Below, piece by piece: positions 7,679 through 53,241 of a stretch of 64,000 nt of DNA. Source of the stretch: Thermoanaerobaculia bacterium (lineage in GTDB: Bacteria > Acidobacteriota > Thermoanaerobaculia > Multivoradales > UBA5704); the NCBI GenBank assembly GCA_036275055.1, contig DASUEN010000046.1, forward strand, positions 22,917 through 86,916. Reading direction: 5' to 3'. The stretch's first letter is position 1, and each line of letters opens with the position of its first letter. The notes under the pieces were generated by a model. It saw only the letters and a list, made by a program, of their open reading frames with translations. It was not told the origin of the DNA and did not search any database. The position numbers and the translations under genes are program-made.

Positions 7679-10510
7679 ATGGCCGTTCCGAAGGGTTGGA
7701 CCCTTGCCCTCCTGGCCGCCGGCTCCACGGCCGGCCTCGTCGCCCTGGCCTTCCAGCCGGCCGCCTCGCGGGACGAGCTGGCGAACCGTATCCCCCAGGC
7801 CGCCCCCTACGTGACCGCGGAAGCCCGTCACTTCCCGCCCCCCTTCGCGGAGGCCTGGGAGGGTCCCCACAACCCGGGGCGCTGCGCGACCTGCCACGCC
7901 AAGATCTTCGCCGAGTGGAACGGCTCGATGATGTCGAGCTCCTGGCGCGATCCGGGCTGGCGGGCGGCGTTCCTCCTCGCGGCGCGGCAGACTTCGACGG
8001 CGGGCGACTGCGAGGCCCCCTCGCCGCCGGACGGCTCGCAGCGCAGCCATCTGAACCCCTTCGCTGCCGGCGACTGCACCTCGCGCTTCGACATTGGCGG
8101 CGGCCCCTCCGGCTCCTCCACAACGGGGCGCCCAGGCTCGCTCCTCGACGGCTTCTGCTCGCAGTGCCACATGCCGGCCAACTACGTGGACAACGTCCCC
8201 CTGGCCTCCGTCGGGCCTGACTGCCCCTCCGGCCGCGAGCACGGGGCGCTCGATCCCGAGTTCAATCCCACCTCGGACGCGGGAACGGGGCTCGCCTTCG
8301 CCACCCTGGCCTCCCGCTTCCGCAACACCGACGCGGGGCGGCGGGGAATCTTCTGCGCCGTCTGCCACACCTTCGCCGACACCCGGGAGATGCCCTATGG
8401 GGACTACCACAAGTCGGGCGTTCCCTATTCGGCCATGGAGGGAACGCAGAGCCGGTCCCGCCTCCCCCCGGCGAGCCAGGACCGCCCTGCGGTGCCCGAT
8501 CCGGCATCGCCGAACCAGGGGTACGCCGTGGGCGCCGGGGCTTTCCGGCTGTCGCCGCACGCCATCGGCTTCCCCGAGTACCTCGGTCCGCTCGCCGCCC
8601 ACGCGAGCCAAGGGCGCGATCCCTACCTGAGCGGCGTGTTCCAGCAGGACGTCCCGTTCCAGAAGGCCCAGCCGGCGGGGCACGAGGCGTATTACCAATC
8701 CCTCCATGAGCGGGCGGAGCTGTGCGCCGCCTGCCACGACGTCACCAACCCGCTGACGGTCAAGAACCGCCTGGGGAAATGGTCCGGCGGCTTCCCCATC
8801 GAGCGCACCTATGCCGAGTGGGCCGGCAGCCGCTACGCCGACCGGCCGGGGAACCGCAACTTCGATCCCCGCTTCAAGCGCGACTGTCAGACCTGTCACA
8901 TGCAGCAGGACTACGGCCAGCCGGGCACCGCCAAGACGCTCTACCAGGGGGGCCACCCCGTGCCGCCGCGCACCGGCCGCGTCGCCGACGACGGCCCGGA
9001 GCGTGCTCCCGCCTTCAGCCATCACTTCATCGGCGGCAATACCTTCGTCCCCCGGCTGGCCGGCGCGGACGTCGACGGTGGCGGCGCCGTGCAGCCCTAT
9101 CCCGAGCTTTCGATCTACAGCTTCACCTCGGCGGACGAGAAGAGCCCCTACCACAACGCCTGGTGGGAGAACGTCACGGCGCACGGCCCCATCACCCAGC
9201 ACGCCCGGCTGGCGTGGGACCGCCTGCGCAACGTCCTCGACCTCGGCCTCGCGGCACCCGCGACCGCCACGGCGGGAAACCGGGTCCCCTTGCGCGTCAC
9301 CGTGGCCAACAGCGGCAGCGGGCACAACTTCCCCTCCGGCTTCCCCGAAGGGCGGGTGGCCTGGGTGGCGGTACGCGCCTGGGACCTCGCCAGCGGCCGC
9401 GAGCTCGACCTCTACGACGCGCACTGGCAACGCACCTCGAAGGGGATCGGCTACCTGACGCGCGACGAGACGGCGGACCCCAACTACCCCCGCTGCCGGC
9501 AGTGGAAGCTGCCGGCCGGCTCGCCCGATCCCTACGCCGTGCAGTTCAAGGCCATCGCCTCCCTGGGCGACGGCTGCCCCACCCTCGACCTCGCCTACGC
9601 CACGCCGCTCAACCTGGTGGTCGACGGCAAGGGGCGGCCGGTGGACGCGGCCGGCCGGGTAATCGACCGCGACAACCCGCGGGGCGTGCCGCAGTACCGC
9701 GACCTCGACGGCGACGGCGATCCCTACGACGACGCCTTCCTCTCCGACACCCGCCTGCGCCCCCTCCCCCACCCGGGGGCCACGGCGGTGATCGACCGCT
9801 ACTCGGTGGTGATCCCGCAGGACGTGCGCGGTCCCGTGGCCGTGGTGGCGGCCGTGTACTACCAGTCGTTCGAGGCGGTGGTGGCGAAGAAGCTGCTGGG
9901 GAACCTGGCCGACCTCAACGGCAATTTCCGGCTCGAGCCGTGCGTCCTCGGCGGTGCCTGCGACGGGCGGACACCCACCGTCGAGCCCGCCGTGGTGGAA
10001 GGGGCGCCGCCCGTGCCCATGGCCGTGCGCAGCCAGGTGATCGACCTCGCCGGGGGTGCTTTGGACGCCGCGCCTCCCGCCGTGGGCACCTACCCGCCGG
10101 CCGGCGCCTCCGGCGTCTCCCCGGACGTGGTGGTCAAGGCCTTCTTCTCCAAGCCGGTGCAGGATCTGAATCCTTCCACCTTCACTCTCACCTACGCTTC
10201 AGGGGCTCCGGTGCCCGGCTTCGTGGACCAGATCGGCGATGGCACCTGGGCCTTCTTCCCCCATCGCGTCTTCCTCGCCGCCCGGCAGACTTACACCGCC
10301 CGTCTCGCGGCGGGAGTCTGCGATTTCCACGGCAATTGCACCCGTCGCGAGGTGGCGTGGACCTTCACCACGGGTGAAACGGCAGGCGAGGGCACGGGCG
10401 ACACCCGGGTGCCGCTGGGCTTCGCCGTCACTCCGGCGCCGAGCGCAGCTCCAGCCCCAGCGCGAGCAGCGTCGGTGAGCCGATCATCCCGTCCAGGGGG
10501 TGGAAGGTGA
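7679..10510 (+). CDS. Large secreted pentahaem c-type cytochrome with a C-terminal Ig-like (SbsA/Big_5-type) domain
   Basis: A 943-aa ORF with a signal peptide and five CxxCH motifs (CATCH, CSQCH, CAVCH, CAACH, CQTCH). The C-terminal ~100 aa look like a bacterial Ig-like domain (YPPAGASGVSPDVVVKAFFSKPV...TYTARLAAGVCDFHGN). A strong RBS precedes the start. Confidence 0.8.
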   Translation: MAVPKGWTLALLAAGSTAGLVALAFQPAASRDELANRIPQAAPYVTAEARHFPPPFAEAWEGPHNPGRCATCHAKIFAEWNGSMMSSSWRDPGWRAAFLLAARQTSTAGDCEAPSPPDGSQRSHLNPFAAGDCTSRFDIGGGPSGSSTTGRPGSLLDGFCSQCHMPANYVDNVPLASVGPDCPSGREHGALDPEFNPTSDAGTGLAFATLASRFRNTDAGRRGIFCAVCHTFADTREMPYGDYHKSGVPYSAMEGTQSRSRLPPASQDRPAVPDPASPNQGYAVGAGAFRLSPHAIGFPEYLGPLAAHASQGRDPYLSGVFQQDVPFQKAQPAGHEAYYQSLHERAELCAACHDVTNPLTVKNRLGKWSGGFPIERTYAEWAGSRYADRPGNRNFDPRFKRDCQTCHMQQDYGQPGTAKTLYQGGHPVPPRTGRVADDGPERAPAFSHHFIGGNTFVPRLAGADVDGGGAVQPYPELSIYSFTSADEKSPYHNAWWENVTAHGPITQHARLAWDRLRNVLDLGLAAPATATAGNRVPLRVTVANSGSGHNFPSGFPEGRVAWVAVRAWDLASGRELDLYDAHWQRTSKGIGYLTRDETADPNYPRCRQWKLPAGSPDPYAVQFKAIASLGDGCPTLDLAYATPLNLVVDGKGRPVDAAGRVIDRDNPRGVPQYRDLDGDGDPYDDAFLSDTRLRPLPHPGATAVIDRYSVVIPQDVRGPVAVVAAVYYQSFEAVVAKKLLGNLADLNGNFRLEPCVLGGACDGRTPTVEPAVVEGAPPVPMAVRSQVIDLAGGALDAAPPAVGTYPPAGASGVSPDVVVKAFFSKPVQDLNPSTFTLTYASGAPVPGFVDQIGDGTWAFFPHRVFLAARQTYTARLAAGVCDFHGNCTRREVAWTFTTGETAGEGTGDTRVPLGFAVTPAPSAAPAPARAASVSRSSRPGGGR

Positions 10511-42048: not shown

Positions 42049-43851
42049 ATGAAAAAGAACTATCGTAGGTTCAGCTTGTCAAAGCTCTTCACCACCCTGG
42101 CCGTGACGCTTGCTTTGATCGGCCTGTGCCTGGTGGAGCCGCCGGTTTCGGCTCGTGCGGGGATGGTGCGCTCCACCCGTGCAGGGAACCAGTCCTTTCC
42201 TGCGATCGGCCCGGCTTTGGCGGTTCTGCCCCCGGACCTTCCGGCGGCGCCGGCTGCCACCACCCTGACCCAAGCCGCGACCTTCGCCTGGAAAGAATTC
42301 ATCGCCCTCAACTGGCCGGCCCAAACCGGGAAACGCGACACTGCGGATACCACCAAGATGTTCGGCGACCAGAGCGTTCCCCTCGTCTGGCAGACCTTCC
42401 GCGCCAAGGTGGAGATCTACCCGGGAAACGGCAATGAGAAGATAGGCCCCCACGGCTCGAACAAAGGGCCGAGCCAGGACTACGGTTACGACGATCCGCC
42501 GGAATACATTTATTCGAAAGACAGCGTGATCAACGGCTCGGACGTGCTCCCTTGCAGCGGGCAGGCTGCGCCCAACCAACCGGCATGGATCAATCTCGAC
42601 GAGGTGAGCCAGATCGGCTCGGACTCGATGTACGCAGGCTTCGGCCAGGATCCGGCCCCGACACCCACCAACAGCAAGCCCAACCTGTTCCGCTACATGG
42701 CGAAGGCCAACCGGACGGAGTACACGTACGTGGTGAGTAACCAGTACTGGTATACGCAAGGAACGGATCCCTCGGTTTCCAGTCCGCTCCAAACCGCGCA
42801 AAACAACTTCGTCAAGAACGTCGTCAACAAGAGACGGATTCCGCCCCTGGGCGCCTCGACAGTATTTTTTCCGGCCTCCTCGGCTCAAGATCCCGGGACG
42901 ATCGAAGTGAAGGCGGCCTGGCGCCCTTTGGGACCCTCCGAGCCCGCTGGGCGGTATCATGTGGCGAACGTGCGCTACTACGAGCGCGACCTGACTCAGA
43001 AGTTCTGTTACCGCGAGGACCAATGGGCTCTGCTGGCGCTCCACATCATACGCAAGACGCCCAAGGCACCGAGCTTCATCTATGCCACCTTCGAGCAGGC
43101 GGACAACATCCGGGACGGCAACGGTGCCCCAATCGAAAACCCGGATGGCAGCGTCATCCATCCGCCTCCTCCCAGCCCGCCCACCAACCCCGCATTGACT
43201 TACACGGATCATCCGAAGCACGCGACCCTCACGGCGGCGAGCACCACCTGTACGCCTGGAGGGCAGCTTTATTATCAGAACATCCACGAGAGCAACGCCA
43301 CGAAAACGCCCGTCAATCCGGGGCTGCCTTCAGGCACGATCTGTGTCAATTACCGGGACAATGCGATTCCCTCCGACGTCATCGCGGTCAACAAAGCCGC
43401 GCAAGTGGCGATCAACCGATACAACCACAGCGCGCCCTGGCAATACTACAAGCTGGTCAACGTGCAGTGGCAGCCCATTCCCTATCGGGAGATCAACTAT
43501 CTTGACCCCAACGCCCCCTACAACGCTGCAACCTACCACCAGGCGAACGTCGTGGTCGAGACCGACTACCCCTTGCAGATGTTCAACGGCCGATTCCCCG
43601 CGTACGGCGTGAACACCAATTACAAAACGAACGGCAAGCTGTATTTCCAGAACGTTTACACGCTCCACGGCACCAAGGTCAAGTCTTTCGACATGGGTGG
43701 CTGCATGGGGTGCCATGGCAGCGGCGCACAGCGGTTCGGCGCTGACTTCAGCTTCATCCTGGGCAGCCCCGTCACGGCGCCGGAAACCCCCGACGACTAC
43801 TCTCTGGCGGCGATCGCTCAGAAATACAAGGCCCTTTTCGAGCGGCACTAA
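42049..43851 (+). CDS. Secreted ~600-aa protein with a single C-terminal CxxCH haem-c motif (hypothetical); sigma54-promoter target
   Basis: I trimmed track ORF 41899..43851 to the ATG at 42049 (GGAGGG 6 nt upstream). The signal peptide is MKKNYRRFSLSKLFTTLAVTLALIGLCLVEPPVSARA. GGCMGCHGSGAQRFGADFSFIL lies near the C-terminus. Confidence 0.75.
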   Translation: MKKNYRRFSLSKLFTTLAVTLALIGLCLVEPPVSARAGMVRSTRAGNQSFPAIGPALAVLPPDLPAAPAATTLTQAATFAWKEFIALNWPAQTGKRDTADTTKMFGDQSVPLVWQTFRAKVEIYPGNGNEKIGPHGSNKGPSQDYGYDDPPEYIYSKDSVINGSDVLPCSGQAAPNQPAWINLDEVSQIGSDSMYAGFGQDPAPTPTNSKPNLFRYMAKANRTEYTYVVSNQYWYTQGTDPSVSSPLQTAQNNFVKNVVNKRRIPPLGASTVFFPASSAQDPGTIEVKAAWRPLGPSEPAGRYHVANVRYYERDLTQKFCYREDQWALLALHIIRKTPKAPSFIYATFEQADNIRDGNGAPIENPDGSVIHPPPPSPPTNPALTYTDHPKHATLTAASTTCTPGGQLYYQNIHESNATKTPVNPGLPSGTICVNYRDNAIPSDVIAVNKAAQVAINRYNHSAPWQYYKLVNVQWQPIPYREINYLDPNAPYNAATYHQANVVVETDYPLQMFNGRFPAYGVNTNYKTNGKLYFQNVYTLHGTKVKSFDMGGCMGCHGSGAQRFGADFSFILGSPVTAPETPDDYSLAAIAQKYKALFERH

Positions 43852-43888
43852 CCGGGCGCGGCTTCGCTCGCCCGAGGAGCCGAAGCTC

Positions 43889-45460
43889 TCACTGAGCGTT
43901 AGCCCGGTCTGCCCCGGCGAACCTCAACTTCGGGTCGTGCTGAGCCCGGTACAAGTAGCTCACCATTCGCCGCGTCAACTCCACGGTGGCGGCGACCTTC
44001 TCCGCGGCTTCGTAGAACAGCCGCAAAGCGGCTAGGGCTTCGCGCTCGATGCCTTCGGCTTTGAAGATCCATTTGAGCCGGGAGGCCGCCATCCAGACCT
44101 CCCGGCTGCGCCCCTCCTCCAGGTAAAGGGTGGCAAGCTCCAGCGTCGCCAGGGCGGCATCGAAAGGAATCTCTCGGGTGTTGAAGCTCTCGCAGACCTC
44201 TTCCAGAGCTTTGATGGCCTCAGCCCTTCTTCCCAGCCCAGCGGCCAGCCAACCCTCCAGCCAGCGGGTCCGAACCAAATCCAGTTCTTGGCCAAGTCGG
44301 TTTGCCAGTACCCGCACCGCCCGTAGGGGCTCCTCGGCTTCCGCAAAGCTTCCAAGATGCAGTAAGTTACCAAGGAGATTGAACCGCAGGCCGAACAACA
44401 ACCGAGGTTCTTGATTGCCATCAATCAGTGGCTCTGCTTGACGGAGGGCAGTGATCGCGCCGTGATAGTCGCCGAGCATCTCAAGCGCCCGCGCGCGGTT
44501 GACCAGAAGGTATTTCGCCTCATCGTGGCGGTCGACCTCCAGGGCCTCAGCGAGCAGGGCCAAGGCCTGGGCAGGCTGCCGCTGCTCCATGCGCAAAGTA
44601 GCCTCTAGACCTAGAACGCGTGCTTCATTGAACAGCCCCGGATCAGCAGGTGCTCCAGCCTTCCAAAGAGGTAATGCATTTCGGAAGGCTTCCTCGGCAT
44701 CCTGTAAATAGCCATGTACCCGCCTTGCGTTCCCAAGATGGACGCCGGCATAGCCCTGAGTTCGTTGAGAGAGGCTTCCGAGAACTCGGTTGGCGATCTC
44801 GACGGCCAATTCGGCAAGCTCCAGCGCTCGTTCCGCACTGTTGGAAGCCGCCGTAACGGATTCGGCACAGGCCAGTTCGCAGACAGCCCAGGACCAGTAC
44901 TCAGGTGCCTCTTCAAGTAGTAGCGCGCGTTCCGGCGCCGAGGTGTCCCGAAGTACGGCCCACAGCCCGGGAGCTTCCAAGCGATCCGCAGGTGACGGCG
45001 GGCGGTCCAACCGCCAAGGGCCGCCAACGCCATGCAAGACCTCTTCGACGACCGCCGCCACAGTCGGGCGAACGATCGCTGAAAGCAAAGCCATCAGCTC
45101 ACCCGGCAAGTCTTTCACCTCGGAGGAGACGTTACCCGTCATTCCCGGAGCCGTTCCACTCAGGACGGCCAGCACCTTACGGATCGCCGGCCGCAGGACC
45201 GCGTCAACGGTAGTGGATGGCACGCCAACCGCGGCGCAGATCTTCGCCCAATTCTCCGGACTGGGAGCCCTCTTCCCATTCTCGAAACGGCTGATCGAGC
45301 TTTCCGGAACGCCCGACCTGGCAGCCAACTCGGCCTGACTCCAGCGCCGAATGCCACGCAGGCACCAGATCAGCCAAGCCGTTTCGGCCAGGACTGGAGG
45401 TGACGTTCTCGGCTCCGGGGGCAAGATAGCTTGCCGTCTCGGGTGTGATTTTCCACTCAT
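43889..45460 (-). CDS. XRE-type HTH plus TPR regulator, paralog 1
   Basis: The HTH reads LRGIRRWSQAELAARSGVPESSISRFENGKRAPS. It is followed by about 380 aa of TPR-like repeats. By eye it is roughly two-thirds identical to 45953..47446 across the TPR region. Confidence 0.8.
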   Translation of the reverse strand: MSGKSHPRRQAILPPEPRTSPPVLAETAWLIWCLRGIRRWSQAELAARSGVPESSISRFENGKRAPSPENWAKICAAVGVPSTTVDAVLRPAIRKVLAVLSGTAPGMTGNVSSEVKDLPGELMALLSAIVRPTVAAVVEEVLHGVGGPWRLDRPPSPADRLEAPGLWAVLRDTSAPERALLLEEAPEYWSWAVCELACAESVTAASNSAERALELAELAVEIANRVLGSLSQRTQGYAGVHLGNARRVHGYLQDAEEAFRNALPLWKAGAPADPGLFNEARVLGLEATLRMEQRQPAQALALLAEALEVDRHDEAKYLLVNRARALEMLGDYHGAITALRQAEPLIDGNQEPRLLFGLRFNLLGNLLHLGSFAEAEEPLRAVRVLANRLGQELDLVRTRWLEGWLAAGLGRRAEAIKALEEVCESFNTREIPFDAALATLELATLYLEEGRSREVWMAASRLKWIFKAEGIEREALAALRLFYEAAEKVAATVELTRRMVSYLYRAQHDPKLRFAGADRANAQ

Positions 45461-45541
45461 AGCACACCATACTCCTGGGAGACCGGCGCCCGCCCAGCCA
45501 TGCCGGCCGCGGCGGAGCCGCCCTCAAGAAAGGAGATCTCG

Positions 45542-45880
45542 ATGCTAGGTCGCACTCTCCGCCTCGTCGTCGCAGTCGCACTCTGTCTCGTGCTCGCTGC
45601 CTCGCTGCCGCTGGCCGGCGCGCAGCGGCCCGGAATCTCAGCTCGGCCTGTTGCAACCCCAAAGGCAGCCCAGGCAGGCTTCTGGGAATTCGTCAAGGGG
45701 GCTGCCTACAGTCTCTTGAACGGATGCAGCCTCGATCCGTACGGAGCCTGCCTGGGGGCCACGCTACCCCAGCCAAACAACGGATGTAGCATAGATCCCT
45801 ACGGTCGCTGCTTGCCTGGAGCTCAGCTAGACAACGGTTGCAGGATTGATCCGTACGGGCTCTGCATGCCGGGGAGTTGA
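45542..45880 (+). CDS. Small secreted protein with three NGC-x-(I/L)DPYG-x-C repeats
   Basis: The ATG at 45542 follows AAAGGAGA. The signal is MLGRTLRLVVAVALCLVLAASLPLAGA. Repeats are NGCSLDPYGACLG, NGCSIDPYGRCLPG and NGCRIDPYGLCMPG. I trimmed track ORF 45500..45880. Confidence 0.6.
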   Translation: MLGRTLRLVVAVALCLVLAASLPLAGAQRPGISARPVATPKAAQAGFWEFVKGAAYSLLNGCSLDPYGACLGATLPQPNNGCSIDPYGRCLPGAQLDNGCRIDPYGLCMPGS

Positions 45881-45903
45881 CTGCTTCCGCCCGGCGGAGC
45901 ACT

Positions 45904-45940
45904 GCCGGGCCGGTGCCATCCGGCCTGGCGGTTTTCTTCT
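45904..45940 (+). terminator. Intrinsic terminator after the repeat-peptide gene
   Basis: GCCGGGCCGG tgccat CCGGCCTGGC forms a 10-bp stem with one G-U pair. It is followed by GGTTTTCTTCT. Confidence 0.6.
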
Positions 45941-45952
45941 CCAAGCGGCGGT

Positions 45953-47446
45953 TCATGCAATGGCTTCAAACCGGAGGTCCGGGTTTCCTTGTGCTCGATA
46001 GAGATAGGAGCCAATCCTCTGTGCCAGGTCCAAGGTGAGAGCCTCTTGCTCGGCAGCGTCGTAGTAGAGCCGGAGGGCCGCCAGGGCAGCGGGAGGGACC
46101 GCTTCGGTCTTGAAGATCCATGCCAGGCCAAGGGCTAACCGCCTGACAGCCGTGATGCGCCCCTCCTGGAGATATATAGTTGTAAGCTGCAACGTCGCCA
46201 TGGCGGCATCGAAGGGAATTTGCCGCGTTGAAAAATCCCGGCTCACCTGCTCCAAGGCGGCGACCGCTTCTTCTCTCCGTCCCAACCCGGAAGCTACCCA
46301 CCCCTCAAGCCATCGGGTCCGAACCAAATCGAGAGCCTGCCCCAAGCGCTCTGCCAGAGGCCGGAGCTTACGCAGCCCCTCCTCAGCTTCGGCGTAGAGC
46401 CCAAGGTAACAGGTCGCGCCGAGAAGATTGAACCTCAGACTAAACAACAAGCGGGGTTCCTGTCTTCCGTCGACCAGCGGTTCCGCCTGGCGGAGCGCGG
46501 CAGTCGCTCCGTTATAGTCCCCGAGTTGCTCAAGCGCTCGCGCCCGGTTGACCAGAAGATACTTTCTCTCACCCTGGCGGTCCACGGCCAAGGCCTCGTC
46601 GAGTAAGGCCAAGGCTTCCGCGGGCCGCCGCTGGCCGATTCGCAGGGAGGCCTCCAGACCAAGAACCCTGGCCTCGTTGAGCAACCCCGGATCGGCGGGC
46701 GCTCCGGCCTTCCAGAGGGGGAGGGCGCGTGCAAAGGCTTCGTCGGCGTCTCGGAGCTTTCCATGTACGCGCCTGGCGTTCCCGAGGTGGACGCCCGCGT
46801 AACCCTCGACACGTTTGCGCATGAGCGGCTCGCCCGTCATCTGCTGTGCAATCTCCACCGCCAACTCGGCAAACTCCAAAGCCCTATCTGCATTGTCGGG
46901 TGCCGCCTTGAGCGACTCGGCGCAAGCGAGCTCGGAGACCGCCCAAGACCGGTACTCCTGGGTCTTCCGAATCAGCGTCCGCCGCTCGGAAGGAGTCCGG
47001 CGCAGCAGCCGCGCTAGCGAGCCCTGAGCGACCTGCCGGTCCGCCAGGGCTCGCACTTCCCAGGACAGGTGGGTCGCCAACAACCGGCCGACTTGGGAGG
47101 TCGCGTCGGCGATGCTTTGCCCGAGCCTGTCGATCGTCTGAAGCTCGGCGCCAGCCTCTCGGGTCTCCGCCGTCGGGTAGACCGGGGACGCGGCTTTGGC
47201 TCGAACCCGGTCGATGAAGGCAAGCGCATCGTCGATGGCCGTACGCTGGAAGCCCATGACGGCGACGATCGTCTCCAAGCGCTCCCGGGTTAAAGACTTC
47301 TTCCCTCGCTCATAGTCCGAGATCAGGCTGGCCGAGACCCCCAGCGCCTCAGCCAACTCGCCCTCACTCCACCCGATGGCTTTCCGCAGGTACGTGAGCG
47401 TAAGCCCCAACGGCGGCAGAATTTTCGGCACCGACCCCTCCTCCAC
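45953..47446 (-). CDS. XRE-type HTH plus TPR regulator, paralog 2
   Basis: GTG start. The HTH reads LRKAIGWSEGELAEALGVSASLISDYERGKKSLT. The TPR region is colinear with paralog 1 (for example YAGVHLGNARRVHG, LPLWKAGAPADPGL, KYLLVNRARALE, DLVRTRWLEGW). Confidence 0.8.
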   Translation of the reverse strand: MEEGSVPKILPPLGLTLTYLRKAIGWSEGELAEALGVSASLISDYERGKKSLTRERLETIVAVMGFQRTAIDDALAFIDRVRAKAASPVYPTAETREAGAELQTIDRLGQSIADATSQVGRLLATHLSWEVRALADRQVAQGSLARLLRRTPSERRTLIRKTQEYRSWAVSELACAESLKAAPDNADRALEFAELAVEIAQQMTGEPLMRKRVEGYAGVHLGNARRVHGKLRDADEAFARALPLWKAGAPADPGLLNEARVLGLEASLRIGQRRPAEALALLDEALAVDRQGERKYLLVNRARALEQLGDYNGATAALRQAEPLVDGRQEPRLLFSLRFNLLGATCYLGLYAEAEEGLRKLRPLAERLGQALDLVRTRWLEGWVASGLGRREEAVAALEQVSRDFSTRQIPFDAAMATLQLTTIYLQEGRITAVRRLALGLAWIFKTEAVPPAALAALRLYYDAAEQEALTLDLAQRIGSYLYRAQGNPDLRFEAIA

Positions 47447-47851
47447 ATGCGCAGACCCCTACTTATAGTAGGTTGCCGCTAGGCGGCTTTTCGTGACAAG
47501 CCGAAACCAGAAGCGGCGGCCGCGGTGTGAAATTCTCGTCGCCGGGAATTAAGATTGCCGAAACCTCGCCGAGAAAAACACCTGGCTTTGCGCGTTGGAA
47601 GACCTCCTTTACGGTCGCGGCATGGGAGGAATTTGGAAAGCAACGAAGGCGCGCGAACGACCTCCCTCCATCCCAGCGGCGGCGCATCGCAGCGGGGACA
47701 GTCCGGGACGGCCGCTTAGCTTTCAGGGCAGCCGGCCCGGCCCTTTTCTCTTGCAGGGAGGTGGGAGACATCCCATGACCGAGGGGGAAGCCGTAGGATT
47801 TCAGCAGCGGGCCCCGGCGCTCGCCGCCTACAGGCCGCCGGGGGAGAAGTC

Positions 47852-49069
47852 GTGAGACGCGGCGGCAGTGCTTACCGCTATCAACAGGTCTGGGAGAACC
47901 TGACGGCCCGGGCGCCCGAGCACCTGCGCATCGCGCACAGCCGGAGGCAGACCGCCCAGCAGCTCCTCACCGACTTGGCCGCCCAACCTCCGGAGTCGTG
48001 GATCGCCCAGATCCAGAAGGGCGGGGAACCCTTCCGCAGTCAGGATCTCTTCGATCTGCTGTTGGAAACCTGCCAGGGCGCACTGCCCTTCGAGCCTCTC
48101 CGGGCCTTCGAGGTCTCGAAGGCGGCGGTCGAGGTAGGACGGCTGCTCGCCTCCGCAGGGGCGGAGAACCCTCAGACTCTGCTGCCGGCGGCTCCTGTCC
48201 TGGAGGAGGCTTTGCTGTGCCGAGCCCTCTGTCTGAACAGCCACGCTCTCCGGCTTCTTGGTCAGCGCGAGCACGCCGAGGCCGCTCTCACCCGTGCGGC
48301 GTGCTTTTTGGGCGATCCGTCAGCGCGTGGCTTCTACGGCCAGGCTTTGGGGTTGCTTCGCTGGGATCAAGGCCGGGAGGAGGAGGCCGTCGCCTTCCTG
48401 CACCACGCCGGCCGCCGGTATCGGGAGCTGGGAGATGTGGGCGAGGAGGCGAAGTGCGCGGCCTTGCTGGGGCTCCTCTACCTCCGATACGACGACGGGG
48501 CGGAGTGGCAGCAGGCCGAGTCTGCCTTGCTTCGGGCGCAGTCTGGCATGGATTGTCAGCAAAGGCCTTGGCTCGCGGCGCAGGCGCAACTCGCCTTGGC
48601 GCGCTGCCAGGCCTTGAGAGGACGCAGGAGTGAGGCGCGAGCGTTGAGGCAGAGCGTCCGATCCCTCTACCCCTCCGTACCTACCGAGGATGACCTGGCT
48701 GCGTTGCATTGGCTCGAAGCGCAGATCGCGCAGGACCTGGAGGAACTAGAGGGAGCCGGGACGCTGTTGGATTCGGCTCGCCGAAGTTTCGTCGCGAGGG
48801 GGTGTCTTCCGGAGGCCACCCTGACCACTCTTCAGCTCGGCTGGATTCGTGCCCGGCAGGGGCGAGGCGAGGAGACCTCGGTGCTGAGCGATGAGCTGAC
48901 AAGAGTCTTCGGGATGGTCAAAGGCTTCGACGTGTCCTCGCGTGCTCTTCAATGTCTGGCCCGAGAGACGGCGCGTCGCAGCCTGAAGGGAAAGAGCTTG
49001 GCCTACCCGAAGCTCTTCCTCTCCTTTCGCGTGCGGGGTGTGTTTCCCCGCCCCATACCGTTCGTCTGA
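47852..49069 (+). CDS. TPR-like helical-repeat protein lacking an HTH (hypothetical)
   Basis: A 405-aa ORF with a GTG start after GGGGGAGAA. Its helical repeats and C-terminal layout resemble the two HTH-TPR proteins. Confidence 0.6.
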   Translation: MRRGGSAYRYQQVWENLTARAPEHLRIAHSRRQTAQQLLTDLAAQPPESWIAQIQKGGEPFRSQDLFDLLLETCQGALPFEPLRAFEVSKAAVEVGRLLASAGAENPQTLLPAAPVLEEALLCRALCLNSHALRLLGQREHAEAALTRAACFLGDPSARGFYGQALGLLRWDQGREEEAVAFLHHAGRRYRELGDVGEEAKCAALLGLLYLRYDDGAEWQQAESALLRAQSGMDCQQRPWLAAQAQLALARCQALRGRRSEARALRQSVRSLYPSVPTEDDLAALHWLEAQIAQDLEELEGAGTLLDSARRSFVARGCLPEATLTTLQLGWIRARQGRGEETSVLSDELTRVFGMVKGFDVSSRALQCLARETARRSLKGKSLAYPKLFLSFRVRGVFPRPIPFV

Positions 49070-49240
49070 GGTGCGCCCCCCTGCCGCTCGCTAGAACCAT
49101 GAAGCTGCCAACGAAAAAGGAAATGAGACATCCTGTGACATCTTGTCGGATACCGACGATCCAGCAGCGGCTGCGGGCGGCCCGGCAGTCCAAAGCTGCC
49201 TCCGATGACGTCATGAGTCTCGCTCTATAGCTCGAAGGAA

Positions 49241-49555
49241 ATGATCGTGGGCACGCATGATCTCATCAGGAGGAAACCCGTGGTCAACGATTCGGAAGCA
49301 GCGGAGGCCGCCGCGCAAATCTTGGAGGTCGCCGAGGGTGTGGAGGCTCTTTGCCGGCGGCTGCGGGAGGTCCATACCCGCCTTCCCGTCTCGCCTTTGG
49401 AACGTCTCATGCTGGTGGGCGAGGAGGACATGGACCGCTCCACACACTTGCGTATCATCCTCGAATGCATCGTCCACGACAGGCTGGAGCCGGTGGCCCG
49501 CGATCTCCGTAGCGCTCTTCACTGGCCTGCCAGCGAACCCGAAGGAAGGGACTAA
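49241..49555 (+). CDS. Hypothetical 104-aa protein
   Basis: The ATG follows GAAGGAA. Its stop overlaps the stop of the convergent TIR-NB-ARC-WD40 gene (CTAA at 49552-49555). I recognise no family, and coding status is uncertain. Confidence 0.4.
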   Translation: MIVGTHDLIRRKPVVNDSEAAEAAAQILEVAEGVEALCRRLREVHTRLPVSPLERLMLVGEEDMDRSTHLRIILECIVHDRLEPVARDLRSALHWPASEPEGRD

Positions 49556-52500
49556 TGGAGTGCTCTCGGCGTCGGGTACCCTGGCTCCACCAGATCGAAG
49601 AAATGCACCTTCCCCGACTGATCGCCAGCCACGATAATTTTTCCATCGGAAGTTGTTGCAACGGCCCACACCGGCGCATCCAAGGTTGTCACGGCTAATT
49701 CCTCTCCGCTTTCCAGGCTCCACACTCGAAGCGTACGGTCGAATGAGGCCGAGACAGCACGACCGTCGGCGAGCATGGCTATGGCTGCGATCGGATCCGT
49801 ATGTCCTTGGAGGATTTGCAGGCTCCGTCGATGCTCAAGATCCCACACCCGAAGCGTCCTGTCCGTGGAAGCAGAGATCACAAGACCGCTGGGCGCGACC
49901 GCCACCGCATTGACTCGGTCCGCATGTCCTCGGAAAACCTGTAGGGTTTGTCCGCTCTCCAGACTCCACACGCGAAGCGTTCCGTCGTTGGATGCGGAGA
50001 CGACGCGGCCGCCCTCTAACTCCGCCACCGCATTGACTCCACTCTCTCCTTCGAGGATTTGCGGGGCTTGCCCGCTTTCCAGACTCCATACCCGAAGCGT
50101 CCGATCCGAGGAGGCGGAGATGACACGACCGTCAGCCAACACAGCCACCGCATTGACCCGGTGATCGTGTCCTTTGAAGTTTTGAAGGGTCCGCCCATTC
50201 TCCAGATCCCACACCCGAAGTATCCCCAGGGCGTCGGCGGAGATAGCGCGACCGTCGGCCGTCACCGCGACTGCGCCAACCGAAGCTGTATGTCCTTGGA
50301 GAATTTTCAAGGTCTGCCCATTCTCCAGGTCCCACACCCGAAGCGCCCCGCGAGCGTCGGCGGAGATGGCGCGACCGCCGGGCACTACCGCTAACGCTCG
50401 GACCCACTCCTGGGATGGTTGGAGAGCTTGCAGAGCCGGCTGTCTACTCTCCAGATTCCAGAGCCGAAGCGCTCCATCAGCATCGGCGGAAACGATACGA
50501 CTGCCGTCCAGCACCGTCACCGCCCTGATCAAAGTCTTGTCTCTTTGCAAGGTTCGCACGACCTGTCCGCTCTCCAGATCCCATATGCGAACCGTCTCAT
50601 CGAGAGAGGCGGACAGCGCGTAGCCTCCGGCCACCGGCACCACCACCCTGACCTCATCCAGGTGCCCCTGGAGGACTCGGAGTGTCTGTCCACTCTCCAG
50701 GTCCCAGACCCGAAGCGTCCGGTCGGCGGAGGCGGAGACAGCGCGGCCGTCGGCCATCATCGCCACGGCTCGGACTCCAGTTATGTGCCCTTGAAGGATT
50801 TTGAACGTCTCTCCGGTCTCGAGATCCCAGACCCGGAGCGTCCCGTCAGTGGAAGCCGAGACGATACGCCGATTGTCCACCACCACCACCGCGTTGACCC
50901 AGTCGCTATGGCCTTCGAGGGTTTGCAGCGTCTGCCCGCTCTCCAGATCCCACACCCGAAGCGTCCGATCCGAGGAGGCGGAGACAAAGCGCCGGCTGTC
51001 GATGACCGCCACCGCGTTGATTCCAGCCGCGTGCCCTTGAAAGATTCGGAGTGTCTGTCCGGTCTCGAGGTCCCAGAGCAGAAGCGTATCGTCGGCGGAG
51101 CCCGAGACGGCACGCCGGCCATCCACCACCGCCACCGCCTTGACCCAGTCAATGTGACCTTTGAGGGTTCGCAGCATCTGCCCGCTCTCCAGGTCCCATA
51201 TCCGAAGCGTCCGATCCGAGGAGGCGGAGATCACGCGCCGGCCGTCGATGACCGCCACTGCGTTGACCTCAGTCAGGTGCCCCTCGAAGGTACGGATCAA
51301 AGCACCGCCCGGATGAATCAAGCCTCCCGTCCTTGGCCGAAGCCAAGGCCGTTTTCGCTGAAGCTTCGCTTCTTCCAGGAAAGCGTGGAGATTTGGCGTG
51401 CCCTTGCCCAGGAGGCGACCCAGGAGCTGTGGAGCAAGCTGCTTCCGATCCCTGGCAAGGACATGTGCCGAAAGACGAAAGGTGTCACGGACAGATCGAA
51501 GTACATCATCCTCTGTCACGAAAGGCTCGAAATCCGCGATCAGAGAGTTGATGTCCGTAGCCAGCAGCTTGGCCTCGATGAACGGGAACCTCACCAACAG
51601 TGCCTTGAATTCGTGCTCATCCCCGGCGCCAATGAAATGATCCCGCAGCCGACGCCAAAGATACGACTCCTCACGGGACAGATCCTCCCACTTCCCACTC
51701 GCAGGGCGATAAACTTCCAACAATCGGGAATGGAGAGACGAAAGCTCGCCGCTCCTCTGCTCCATCAACACCCTTCGGGTAACGTCATGGAGACGAACTG
51801 TTCCGTTCTTTCGATCAAATTCCAACAGCAAGGAAAGGTCATAAAGATGCTGGCAAACCCTGGTGGCGCCGAAATGAGACGTGCCCCAACAGCGCTCCAG
51901 AACCGAGACCGGAATATCCTCGTCTTCCGGGAAGATGGCCAACTGGAAGAAAAACTCCTGCTCCGCCTCGGGAAGACGTCGAACGCCGACGAGAATCGCT
52001 CTCGAGGCCGCCGCATGCCGGGATGCCGAATCGTTCTGGTCGAACGCGGAGAACCCTTCCGTGGCCAGAGCCCCTTCGATCTCCCTGAGGGCCTCTGCGA
52101 TCGACAGCCCTTCTTTTACCATCTCCCGCAAGGGGCCATTCACGAGCTTCAAGAGGAGAGGCCATTCTCCGAGTTGTGCGGCCAAGGATCTGAAATCCTC
52201 AGGAGAAGAGCCCGGGAGCCCGGCCCGGAGCAGGTCGACGGCTTCGGACGAAGCCATCGCGTCCACCCTGATGAGCTTCGAATCCGCGGGGAGGGTGCGG
52301 TTGTCGCGGGTCGTGATGAGGAGGGCGCAGCTCTCTCCGAGCCCCTGGAACGGAGCGACGTCATCCGGCTTCCAGACATCGTCGACGACGACGAGGGCCC
52401 TGGCTCCATTCAAAGACTCGCGGAGCTTCGCGCCGGCGGCGGCGACGGTTTCGAAGGCGCGAGGCTCTTCGTCGGTCCACCAGCGGAGGAGATCCCGGAT

Positions 52501-53241
52501 CTGCTTCAGGCGGCCGTTGGAATCGACCTCCTCCCCCAGAGTCGCCCAGAGAATGCCGTCCGGATACGTCTCCCGGACCCGCTCGTCGAAGCAAAGTTTC
52601 TGGGCCAGCGCGGTCTTTCCAAATCCGCCGGCTCCTCGCAAGGCGGTGGTGATTCCCACCGATCTCCCGGCTTGAGCGCCTTTCGAGCAGAGCACTTCGC
52701 GGACTTCGTCGTACTCTTGGCGGTGAACCCACCCCTCAGGCTCTTGCGCCACCATGCAGCGATAGTGAAGAGTGTTCTTCGCCGGTCCCCCTCCCCCGCC
52801 CGGACCGGGCGCCTGTCCTCGAATCCCGCTGATCAGACTACGGAAGGCGTCCTCGTCATCGAGACCTGCGCGGAAGTCCACCCAGGCGAGACGGCGGAGG
52901 AAACGGGGAAGCTTTTCCTCCCGGGGCTCGAAGGAGCCGGGGAGGAGGACGGGGACCACCCGGAAGGCGCGGTCGCCCACCCGGGCCTCCAGAGCGGAAC
53001 GCATCTCCTCGTTCTGCCAGGAGCCGAGACCCCTGGCGCCCAGGAACACGGCGCAGGTACGGCTCGCGTCGAGCGCCTCCTCCAGCGCCTCCTGCCAGGG
53101 ATCACCCGGGATGAGATGCCACTTGTCCAGGAACGGCTCGATTCCCGCTTCCTGGAGCTTCCGGGCAAGGCTCTCCACGGCAGGCTTGTCCGCGCTGCTG
53201 TGGCTCAGGAAGACGTCGTAGCGGGACATTGGCATCGTCAA
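49552..53241 (-). CDS. NLR-like STAND protein: N-terminal TIR domain, NB-ARC/APAF-1-type NTPase and 14 WD40 repeats
   Basis: The TIR reads YDVFLSHSSADKPAVESLARKLQEAGIEPFLDKW...GSWQNEEM. Walker A is GAGGFGKTALA and Walker B is LVVVDDVW, followed by LLITTR and an ARC-like helical region. Then come 14 repeats of the type GHxxxVNAVAVxxDGRxxSASxDRTLRVWDLESGQTL. The track start is a TTG at 53241; ATGs at 53235 and 53229 are alternatives. Confidence 0.9.
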   Translation of the reverse strand: MTMPMSRYDVFLSHSSADKPAVESLARKLQEAGIEPFLDKWHLIPGDPWQEALEEALDASRTCAVFLGARGLGSWQNEEMRSALEARVGDRAFRVVPVLLPGSFEPREEKLPRFLRRLAWVDFRAGLDDEDAFRSLISGIRGQAPGPGGGGGPAKNTLHYRCMVAQEPEGWVHRQEYDEVREVLCSKGAQAGRSVGITTALRGAGGFGKTALAQKLCFDERVRETYPDGILWATLGEEVDSNGRLKQIRDLLRWWTDEEPRAFETVAAAGAKLRESLNGARALVVVDDVWKPDDVAPFQGLGESCALLITTRDNRTLPADSKLIRVDAMASSEAVDLLRAGLPGSSPEDFRSLAAQLGEWPLLLKLVNGPLREMVKEGLSIAEALREIEGALATEGFSAFDQNDSASRHAAASRAILVGVRRLPEAEQEFFFQLAIFPEDEDIPVSVLERCWGTSHFGATRVCQHLYDLSLLLEFDRKNGTVRLHDVTRRVLMEQRSGELSSLHSRLLEVYRPASGKWEDLSREESYLWRRLRDHFIGAGDEHEFKALLVRFPFIEAKLLATDINSLIADFEPFVTEDDVLRSVRDTFRLSAHVLARDRKQLAPQLLGRLLGKGTPNLHAFLEEAKLQRKRPWLRPRTGGLIHPGGALIRTFEGHLTEVNAVAVIDGRRVISASSDRTLRIWDLESGQMLRTLKGHIDWVKAVAVVDGRRAVSGSADDTLLLWDLETGQTLRIFQGHAAGINAVAVIDSRRFVSASSDRTLRVWDLESGQTLQTLEGHSDWVNAVVVVDNRRIVSASTDGTLRVWDLETGETFKILQGHITGVRAVAMMADGRAVSASADRTLRVWDLESGQTLRVLQGHLDEVRVVVPVAGGYALSASLDETVRIWDLESGQVVRTLQRDKTLIRAVTVLDGSRIVSADADGALRLWNLESRQPALQALQPSQEWVRALAVVPGGRAISADARGALRVWDLENGQTLKILQGHTASVGAVAVTADGRAISADALGILRVWDLENGRTLQNFKGHDHRVNAVAVLADGRVISASSDRTLRVWSLESGQAPQILEGESGVNAVAELEGGRVVSASNDGTLRVWSLESGQTLQVFRGHADRVNAVAVAPSGLVISASTDRTLRVWDLEHRRSLQILQGHTDPIAAIAMLADGRAVSASFDRTLRVWSLESGEELAVTTLDAPVWAVATTSDGKIIVAGDQSGKVHFFDLVEPGYPTPRALH
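49590..51300 (-). repeat. Fourteen tandem ~126-bp WD40-coding repeats with high internal identity
   Basis: The repeats are visible at DNA level (recurring CTCCAGATCCCACACCCGAAGCGTCC-type strings on the plus strand) and at protein level (LRVWDLESGQTL appears many times). Confidence 0.85.

Follow-up and report, generated by a model that had tools for sequence, protein, structure and literature searches.

A 64,000-nt stretch of contig DASUEN010000046.1 (assembly GCA_036275055.1; hereafter the window, to whose first letter all positions refer) from a soil acidobacterium of the class Thermoanaerobaculia carries a compact cassette of three genes, in which the gene for a small secreted peptide precursor lies between two genes for proteins that join a DNA-binding helix-turn-helix (HTH) domain of the XRE type to a superhelix of tetratricopeptide repeats (TPRs). 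With a probability of roughly 0.55, we read these genes as a self-contained signalling cassette made up of a peptide and its cognate receptors, which would follow the logic of the RRNPP(A) systems of Bacillota, phages and plasmids (Rap-Phr, NprR-NprX, PlcR-PapR, Rgg-SHP, PrgX, AimR-AimP and AloR-AloP) but would have an independent origin. We regard this as the best reading because the peptide and receptor genes co-occur and because three lines of evidence tie the peptide to the TPR domain, namely selection on the peptide units, a swap of the output domain for a GGDEF domain, and the mosaic evolution of the two receptors. All genomes compared here are metagenome-assembled genomes (MAGs). The two receptors are referred to below as a (paralog 2), which is convergent with the peptide gene, and b (paralog 1), which is divergent from it.

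The co-occurrence of repeat-peptide genes with HTH-TPR genes, which a sequence-only reading of this stretch had set beforehand as the check on its proposal of an RRNPP-like module, is strong both within and across genomes. The genome that contains the window (9.4 Mb in 324 contigs) encodes about 50 paralogs of the TPR proteins and at least 38 small exported DPxG-repeat peptides of a single architecture: a signal peptide, a Trp-rich amphipathic helix (for example, LWSALRSLWSE) and then one to four units of the form G-x-x-[ILMV]-D-P-x-G, the last of which is found at the C-terminus or a few residues before it. These paralogous precursors are 65-138 amino acids (aa) long, and a basic-then-hydrophobic N-terminus is seen in 38 of 38 curated paralogs, for most of which it was itself a selection criterion. 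A TPR paralog is found no more than 700 bp from 34 of the 38 peptide genes, as opposed to 0.6 expected by chance; the remaining four are at contig ends or beside weaker matches. In related genomes, a TPR paralog adjoins 16 of 17 peptides in G065, 8 of 10 in G133 and the only one in G125, and the three-gene layout of the window, which we call class A, recurs in G097, G065 and G041. The three genes of the cassette are passed on together as a unit.

All named homologs of the receptors come from Thermoanaerobaculia MAGs (Acidobacteriota), where they are annotated merely as helix-turn-helix or TPR proteins, and the family peptides carry no Pfam or NCBIfam annotation at all. When 151 genomes of the class were searched with a profile of the peptides, the four genomes of the window's family yielded 17 to 33 or more copies each and two other families of the order yielded 10 and 2, with only weak single matches elsewhere; among 301 genomes of the phylum, nothing outside the window's family matches at E ≤ 1e-6. 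Searched against 1.84 billion representative proteins, the same profile matches 3966 clusters at E ≤ 1e-3 and 833 at E ≤ 1e-10, and nearly all of the best 150 matches listed are full-length proteins of 90-170 aa.

The TPR domain of this family is combined with several different heads. Class A receptors carry the XRE HTH and occur as tandem pairs with the peptide gene between them on the opposite strand, and their peptides mostly consist of Cys-flanked units. In class B receptors, an H-x4-C-x2-C head replaces the HTH and the peptide gene is located directly upstream on the same strand; some 35 TPR paralogs of the window's genome carry this head. Class B proteins start with HP-x(n)-L-x2-F ... 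H-L-L-x-G-C-x2-C and have no transmembrane segment (for example, C151:5017-6180 and C284:8742-9767). Their motif bears a resemblance to zinc anti-sigma factors, with a spacing that differs from the H-x3-C-x2-C of zf-HC2, and an assignment of the heads to zf-HC2 (ZAS anti-sigma) finds no support in Pfam, as eight class B proteins gave no match to PF13490 at E ≤ 0.05. The Cys-loop repeat, which the sequence-only reading had described, is present in the units of the window but is confined to the HTH subclass: most members of the peptide family have no Cys, and even orthologs of the window peptide drop single cysteines.

A third kind of head is found in a metagenomic locus (L065:5953-8241), which encodes a GGDEF-TPR protein consisting of a transmembrane helix, a cyclase domain with a GGEEF motif and a TPR domain 61% identical to that of paralog 2. 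The gene is followed by a 104-aa open reading frame (ORF) for a DPYG-type peptide (7927-8241), which was missed by the gene caller of the record and which has the same conserved upstream sequence. Since a DPYG peptide thus stands beside a GGDEF-TPR protein of the TPR clade of paralog 2, the type of peptide follows the TPR clade and not the output domain. Peptide genes of the DPxG family are probably under-called generally.

The precursor gene of the window was identified correctly by the sequence-only reading as a 112-aa pre-protein gene: its ATG at 45542 and the Shine-Dalgarno sequence AAGGAG are kept in six orthologous loci, as opposed to an upstream ATG at 45500, which is not. Judged by eye, the N-terminus follows the n-h-c pattern of a signal peptide (MLGRTLRLVVAVALCLVLAASLPLAGA, followed by Q; site AGA/Q), which spans 45542-45622, and an amphipathic helix occupies residues 41-59. 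The three repeats of the form NGC-x-[IL]-DPYG-x-C were likewise described accurately: NGCSLDPYGAC (45719-45751), NGCSIDPYGRC (45779-45811) and NGCRIDPYGLC (45833-45865), each with its cysteines in C-x7-C spacing. No dibasic sites were seen in the precursor, and it matches nothing in Pfam or NCBIfam. The AlphaFold2 model (predicted TM-score 0.26) has no global fold and resembles beads on a string, with a signal helix (residues 2-20), the helix at 41-59 and one small β-hairpin for each DPYG turn.

One link between peptide and receptor is the selection acting on these units. At their variable positions, identity is 0.72 within precursors and 0.31 between them, a value that 0 of 2000 permutations reach. 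Recent internal duplication was rejected as the source of this similarity, given that the synonymous divergence (dS) between repeats is about 1.5. In 27 precursors, the ratio of nonsynonymous to synonymous substitution (dN/dS) between the first and the last unit is 0.08 at a dS of 1.5, and the repeats are therefore old and selected rather than recent copies. Among the three units of the window, the Gly, Cys and Pro codons differ synonymously. Strong purifying selection maintains in these units a sequence specific to each cassette. For the whole gene, dN/dS among orthologs of the window peptide is 0.2-0.5; all six orthologs retain the DPYG type, including the Tyr, while the spacers, the number of units (two or three) and single cysteines vary.

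Another link is the different history of the two parts of the receptors. The overall identity of paralogs 1 and 2, 54%, is very unevenly spread: the TPR domains reach 68%, the HTHs 33% and the linkers 23%. We built trees from 29 class A receptors of 15 cassettes. In the HTH tree, the a/b label requires a single change, as opposed to a mean of 9.9 and a minimum of 6 for shuffled labels, and the split has a support of 98/98, with paralog 1 in the b clade. In the tree of TPR domains, receptors a and b of the same cassette are sisters, and the label requires 11 changes, the same as random labelling; monophyly of the a receptors is rejected on this tree by the approximately unbiased test (difference in log-likelihood 1047, p = 1.7e-5). 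The TPR domains of two orthologous cassettes, C322 and L060, cluster according to genome and their HTHs according to position, which points to continuing conversion limited to the TPR part. Independent tandem duplications as a source of the a/b similarity of TPR domains are disfavoured by the single 98/98 split of the HTHs and by the pattern in C322 and L060. TPR domains track the cassette, and hence the peptide, and HTH heads track the position of the gene. This mosaic suggests that the two receptors of a cassette keep the same sensor and carry different DNA-binding heads, which separated long ago.

The two colinear HTH-TPR paralogs themselves, already recognized in the sequence-only reading, are confirmed by the ORF listing and by Pfam, with HTH_3 matching paralog 1 at E = 1.4e-13 and paralog 2 at E = 4e-10, and with TPR_2 at 33.6 bits (cut-off 27; paralog 1) and TPR_12 at 31.9 bits (cut-off 30.1). 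Neither receptor has a signal peptide or a transmembrane segment. Paralog 2 may start 5 codons later, as in the public annotation, which gives it 492 aa; paralog 1 shares 67% identity with its same-position ortholog in G097. An AlphaFold2 model of paralog 2, built with 46 homologs, has a mean pLDDT (predicted local distance difference test) score of 89.6 and a confident HTH and TPR superhelix; it comprises the HTH (residues 12-85), a disordered part (87-116), a long helix (103-148) and about 17 TPR helices (152-487). Judged from this model and from its Foldseek matches, among which LGN, the Rap-Phr complexes and PlcR-PapR bind peptides in their groove, the receptors are predicted to have a TPR superhelix of the peptide-binding type. 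The comparison with RRNPP structures that had been proposed for such a model gave a mixed picture: among the Foldseek matches in the Protein Data Bank (PDB) are Rap (4gyo, rank 14, E = 5e-5), RapI, the phi3T Rap with its pheromone, domain III of MalT, and the PlcR-PapR-DNA complex (3u3w, rank 45), but ranks 1-13 are taken by the TPRs of LGN/Pins (best E = 6e-6). None of the RRNPP-subfamily-specific models of Pfam or NCBIfam matches the receptors.

Across 46 class A and B paralogs of the window's own genome, the only near-invariant polar residues are N223 (45 of 46) and R226 (46 of 46). In RNPP receptors, a strictly conserved Asn (N227 of RapF) and an Arg hold the backbone of the peptide (PMC3601957). 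The parallel between N223/R226 and this Asn/Arg pair of the groove is suggestive; it is a likeness by conservation and not by superposition of residues.

From these sequence features we infer a route of export, processing, re-import and receptor binding. The precursor would be exported by the Sec pathway with removal of its signal peptide, and cutting in the periplasm or outside the cell would release between one and three units, each about 9-13 residues long (x-G-C-x-[IL]-D-P-Y-G-x-C) and probably a small β-hairpin around the DPYG turn that a disulfide may staple. The units would then re-enter the cytoplasm, for example through a single Opp-type permease, and bind both receptors within the concave groove of their TPR superhelix, where Asn223 and Arg226 could hold the invariant D-P-x-G core and variable residues of the groove could read the cassette-specific positions. 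With their different DNA-binding heads, receptors a and b may produce two different, perhaps opposing, transcriptional outputs. A likely target would be the conserved 81-bp region of the cassette itself, which would create an autoinduction loop, and the approximately 40 cassettes per genome, with HTH, Cys-motif or GGDEF outputs, may work as many parallel private channels. To a wider claim we would give not quite even odds: that Thermoanaerobaculia, which presumably are diderm, have independently evolved peptide communication through cytoplasmic TPR receptors, with dozens of orthogonal D-P-x-G channels per genome, interchangeable heads (two HTHs, the Cys-motif head and a diguanylate cyclase) and, in the HTH cassettes, two receptors with matching ligand-binding domains, a match consistent with gene conversion.

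Several points weigh against such a route. If the host is diderm, as we presume, a peptide of about 1 kDa must cross the outer membrane twice, and neither a transporter nor a protease gene is found in the cassette. The genome has only one OppA-like binding protein, whose gene is needed for re-import but uninformative about it. The conserved Trp-rich helix of the precursor has no counterpart in RRNPP propeptides. The best structural match of the receptor is a eukaryotic scaffold TPR, and a sequence profile of the 46-member family retrieves no RRNPP chain among the best 60 of 167 PDB chains (E ≤ 1), only generic XRE HTHs and TPRs. If gene conversion homogenises the TPR domains, part of that effect could be neutral. 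All data that couple the TPR domain to the peptide fit equally well with a TPR domain that binds the unexported precursor. Finally, arrays of about 25-35 DPxG units inside two large proteins, P0210 and P0156, indicate that the unit could be a structural motif.

Two side observations bear on these points. The sole SBP_bac_5 (OppA/DppA-type) binding protein of the 9.4-Mb genome is encoded at C206:48126-49205. P0210 (669 aa) has about 25 DPxG-type units of many mixed types, including CIDPYG, and no Pfam domain, and P0156 (4336 aa) has about 35 such units and HAMP as its sole Pfam match; these proteins could be multi-signal precursors, decoys, or a sign of a structural role of the unit.

Of the competing explanations, the one that survives best, although we consider it unlikely, is that of a regulator with a secreted effector, in which the peptide would be the product (an antimicrobial stapled hairpin, an adhesin or matrix component, or a Ca-binding peptide) and the HTH-TPR proteins its dedicated regulators, sensing some other ligand. 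A Sec signal and Cys-stapled β-hairpins would suit an extracellular effector, as would the DPxG arrays of large secreted proteins, the lack of import and processing genes in the cassette and the scaffold TPR as best fold match. However, this explanation does not account for some 40 peptides that each have a private regulator and nothing else in the cassette, for a peptide type that tracks the TPR clade despite a GGDEF output, or for the matching TPR domains of the two receptors, and most family members lack Cys.

Control coupled to secretion appears distinctly unlikely as well. Here the TPR domain would bind the unexported precursor, through its units or its Trp-rich helix, and export would free or change the regulator in the manner of the TPR chaperones of type III secretion, with no re-import. 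The coupling evidence, as noted above, suits this arrangement just as well, the problem of the outer membrane and of import disappears, and the conserved amphipathic helix could serve as a handle. On the other hand, Sec export is fast and constitutive, which makes it a poor basis for a switch; repeated, selected units at the C-terminus suit released ligands more than a single docking site; and we know of no Sec-dependent precedent. The two remaining alternatives are essentially excluded. It is very improbable that the peptide gene encodes the multi-core precursor of a ribosomally synthesized and post-translationally modified peptide (RiPP) whose maturation the TPR proteins regulate or scaffold: repeated core-like units do follow a conserved leader-like helix, but genes for modification, proteolysis or export are missing from the cassettes, orthologous loci have different flanks, and a Sec signal peptide is atypical of RiPP leaders. 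The suggestion of the sequence-only reading that the HTH-TPR proteins regulate the adjacent TIR/NB-ARC/WD40 (NLR-like) gene, which draws on proximity in this window only, deserves hardly any credence, as synteny contradicts it: none of the flanking genes of the window is present in the 13 kb around the orthologous cassette of G097 (L045), and the 12 NLR-like paralogs and approximately 50 TPR paralogs of the window's genome are not co-located.

The probable control region of the cassette lies between the precursor gene and receptor b. The gap of 81 bp, reported exactly by the sequence-only reading, is identical in four loci (the window, L045, L067 and L068), and between orthologous loci this region has about 88% identity, whereas the proteins have only 67-70%; on the other side, 72 bp separate the precursor gene from receptor a. 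The motif CACCATA (45465-45471; TATGGTG on the minus strand) stands beside an inverted repeat and recurs in most paralogous cassettes of class A. Were TATGGT the -10 box of receptor b, in the window only 5 nt would separate its end from the ATG at 45460, which would make the mRNA leaderless. A seed-based search of the 81-bp region for repeats found no convincing short palindromic operator.

The inverted repeat, which is long and imperfect, is predicted to form a hairpin whose outer stem pairs CUCCU (45472-45476) with the Shine-Dalgarno AGGAG (45531-45535) and whose apex is GGCC-AUGCC-GGCC (conserved form GGCC-AUGNN-GGCC). In a single-sequence fold with shuffles, it has a minimum free energy of -33.7 kcal/mol and a z-score of -2.9. 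Equivalent hairpins are predicted in 14 of 14 class A cassettes folded (z from -1.05 to -4.4), with arm sequences that differ; these arms cannot be aligned, and RNAalifold on a MAFFT alignment of the 14 upstream regions therefore recovered no more than a 3-bp stem at the apex. The hairpin and the 81-bp region around it could be a translational switch in the 5' untranslated region, a 5' stabiliser, a DNA operator, or a combination of these. The terminator of the peptide gene, another element already noticed from the sequence alone, holds up as a hairpin with a T-run whose stem is kept in the G097 ortholog with a different loop and compensating changes. No known RNA families were found in 43000-50000. 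The features of the locus are listed in Table 1.

Table 1. Features of the proposed peptide/receptor cassette and of its neighbours in the window.
Feature	Position	Strand	Description
Receptor b (paralog 1)	43889-45460	minus	523 aa; XRE HTH, linker and predicted TPR superhelix; divergent from the peptide gene
Divergent control region	45461-45541		81 bp; contains motif CACCATA and most of the long inverted repeat
Predicted hairpin (inverted repeat)	45472-45535	plus	64 nt, directly 5' of the peptide start
Peptide precursor	45542-45880	plus	112 aa; signal peptide, amphipathic helix and three units
Terminator hairpin and T-run	45901-45942 (hairpin 45901-45932)	plus	13-bp stem; between the convergent peptide gene and receptor a
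Receptor a (paralog 2)	45953-47446	minus	497 aa; XRE HTH and predicted TPR superhelix; convergent with the peptide gene
p3	47852-49069	plus	405 aa; HTH-less distant relative of the receptor TPR domain; divergent from receptor a
Small protein accompanying p3	49241-49555	plus	104 aa; no Pfam match
TIR/NB-ARC/WD40 (NLR-like) gene	49552-53241		near the cassette in the window

The gene p3, whose product matches paralog 2 in BLASTP at E = 5e-7, is a frequent but not a constant companion of the cassette. Genes similar to p3 are found beside cassettes in L047, L048 and L050 and on contig C41 of the window's own genome, and a 60% identical ortholog, preceded by a 91-aa ORF, occupies the same position in L066 (pair L066:7162-8602); p3 is absent from the 13 kb around the orthologous cassette of G097 (L045). 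The 104-aa protein encoded downstream of p3 is 41% identical (E = 7e-22) to the 91-aa ORF of L066, so that p3 and the small ORF appear as a conserved pair with a variable gene order; searches of NCBIfam and Pfam with both proteins found nothing. A 26-codon ORF (47775-47855) that overlaps the start of p3 aligns with the N-terminus of the same 91-aa ORF, and, as the window lacks about 180 bp that are present in L066, it looks like a remnant and not like a dedicated leader peptide. Between receptor a and p3 there is also a strongly conserved non-coding block (47460-47560; TATAGTAGGTTGCCGCTAGGCGGCTTTTCGTGACAAG ... GGTGTGAAATTC), which is shared with L066, has no match in Rfam and includes a hairpin with a T-run at 47475-47492.

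To our knowledge, signalling by re-imported peptides through cytoplasmic TPR receptors is proven, and a matter of textbooks, only for Gram-positive Firmicutes and their phages, and a literature search for RRNPP systems together with Acidobacteria/Acidobacteriota, Thermoanaerobaculia or diderm bacteria found no description of such a system. If our reading is right, the cassette would represent a second, independent invention of this kind of communication in an abundant soil phylum that probably has an outer membrane, and would change where such communication is sought. The family would provide a large natural set of orthogonal peptide/receptor pairs: a genome holds some 40 cassettes, and public data contain about 4000 clusters of the peptide, all of them unannotated. 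It would also link peptide sensing to a cyclic di-GMP output and would offer a clear case of paired receptors whose ligand-binding domains are alike within a cassette while their DNA-binding heads remain distinct.

The comparison with known systems begins with the RRNPP systems themselves. RRNPP_detector applies five criteria, by default a propeptide of 10-100 aa that adjoins the receptor and a receptor of 250-500 aa with TPRs among them; the cassette fits these broadly, with the 112-aa precursor and the 523-aa paralog 1 slightly above the default sizes (PMC10075063). As in RRNPP systems, a gene for a small propeptide of the Sec type adjoins the gene for a cytoplasmic TPR receptor some 500 aa in length, and the precursor has its presumed active part at the C-terminus; the near-invariant Asn and Arg of the TPR domain are a suggestive parallel. 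Like PlcR, NprR, Rgg and AimR, the receptors of the window carry an N-terminal XRE HTH. The many paralogous pairs per genome recall the Alo systems of Paenibacillus (more than 25 pairs; PMC7425212). In contrast to RRNPP systems, the cassette belongs to an acidobacterium, presumably diderm, and has no detectable sequence homology to them; the precursors have one to five repeated units, a Trp-rich helix and a shared D-P-x-G core; and a Cys-motif head and a GGDEF domain are found among the outputs. The RRNPP-like module proposed from the sequence alone therefore holds with regard to co-occurrence and to the coupling of peptide and TPR domain but not with regard to ancestry: as the test for homology failed and the host is outside Bacillota, the cassette would be a functional analogue and not a member of the RRNPP family.

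Other systems share single features. The TPR domain of LGN/Pins (PDB 3sf4, 6hc2 and 4wne; TM-score 0.57-0.67 on the target) forms a superhelix of eight repeats whose inner groove binds extended peptides, but LGN/Pins is a eukaryotic polarity scaffold with 15-18% identity to the receptors, no HTH and no genetic link to the gene of its ligand. MalT (PDB 1hz4) likewise uses a TPR superhelix as a sensor of ligands or partners, and its TPR_MalT model matches the receptors at 28 bits, below the cut-off, with Foldseek rank 34; unlike MalT, the receptors have no STAND ATPase, and the gene for the MalT ligand is not adjacent. On the side of the peptide, the α-factor gene of yeast, MFalpha1, encodes an exported precursor with several near-identical copies of the signal separated by variable spacers. 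The precursor of the window has the same tandem arrangement of near-identical units with variable spacers, whereas MFalpha1 is eukaryotic, is processed by Kex2 at dibasic sites and acts through a surface receptor.

For the pair of receptors, the best model is Rgg2/Rgg3-SHP of Streptococcus pyogenes, in which two paralogous receptors beside a pheromone gene respond to the same peptides with antagonistic outputs (PMC3509411); by this analogy, receptors a and b of the window may be antagonists. Unlike Rgg2 and Rgg3, receptors a and b lie on either side of one peptide gene, and the TPR domain of each is closer to that of its partner than to the TPR domains of any other cassette.

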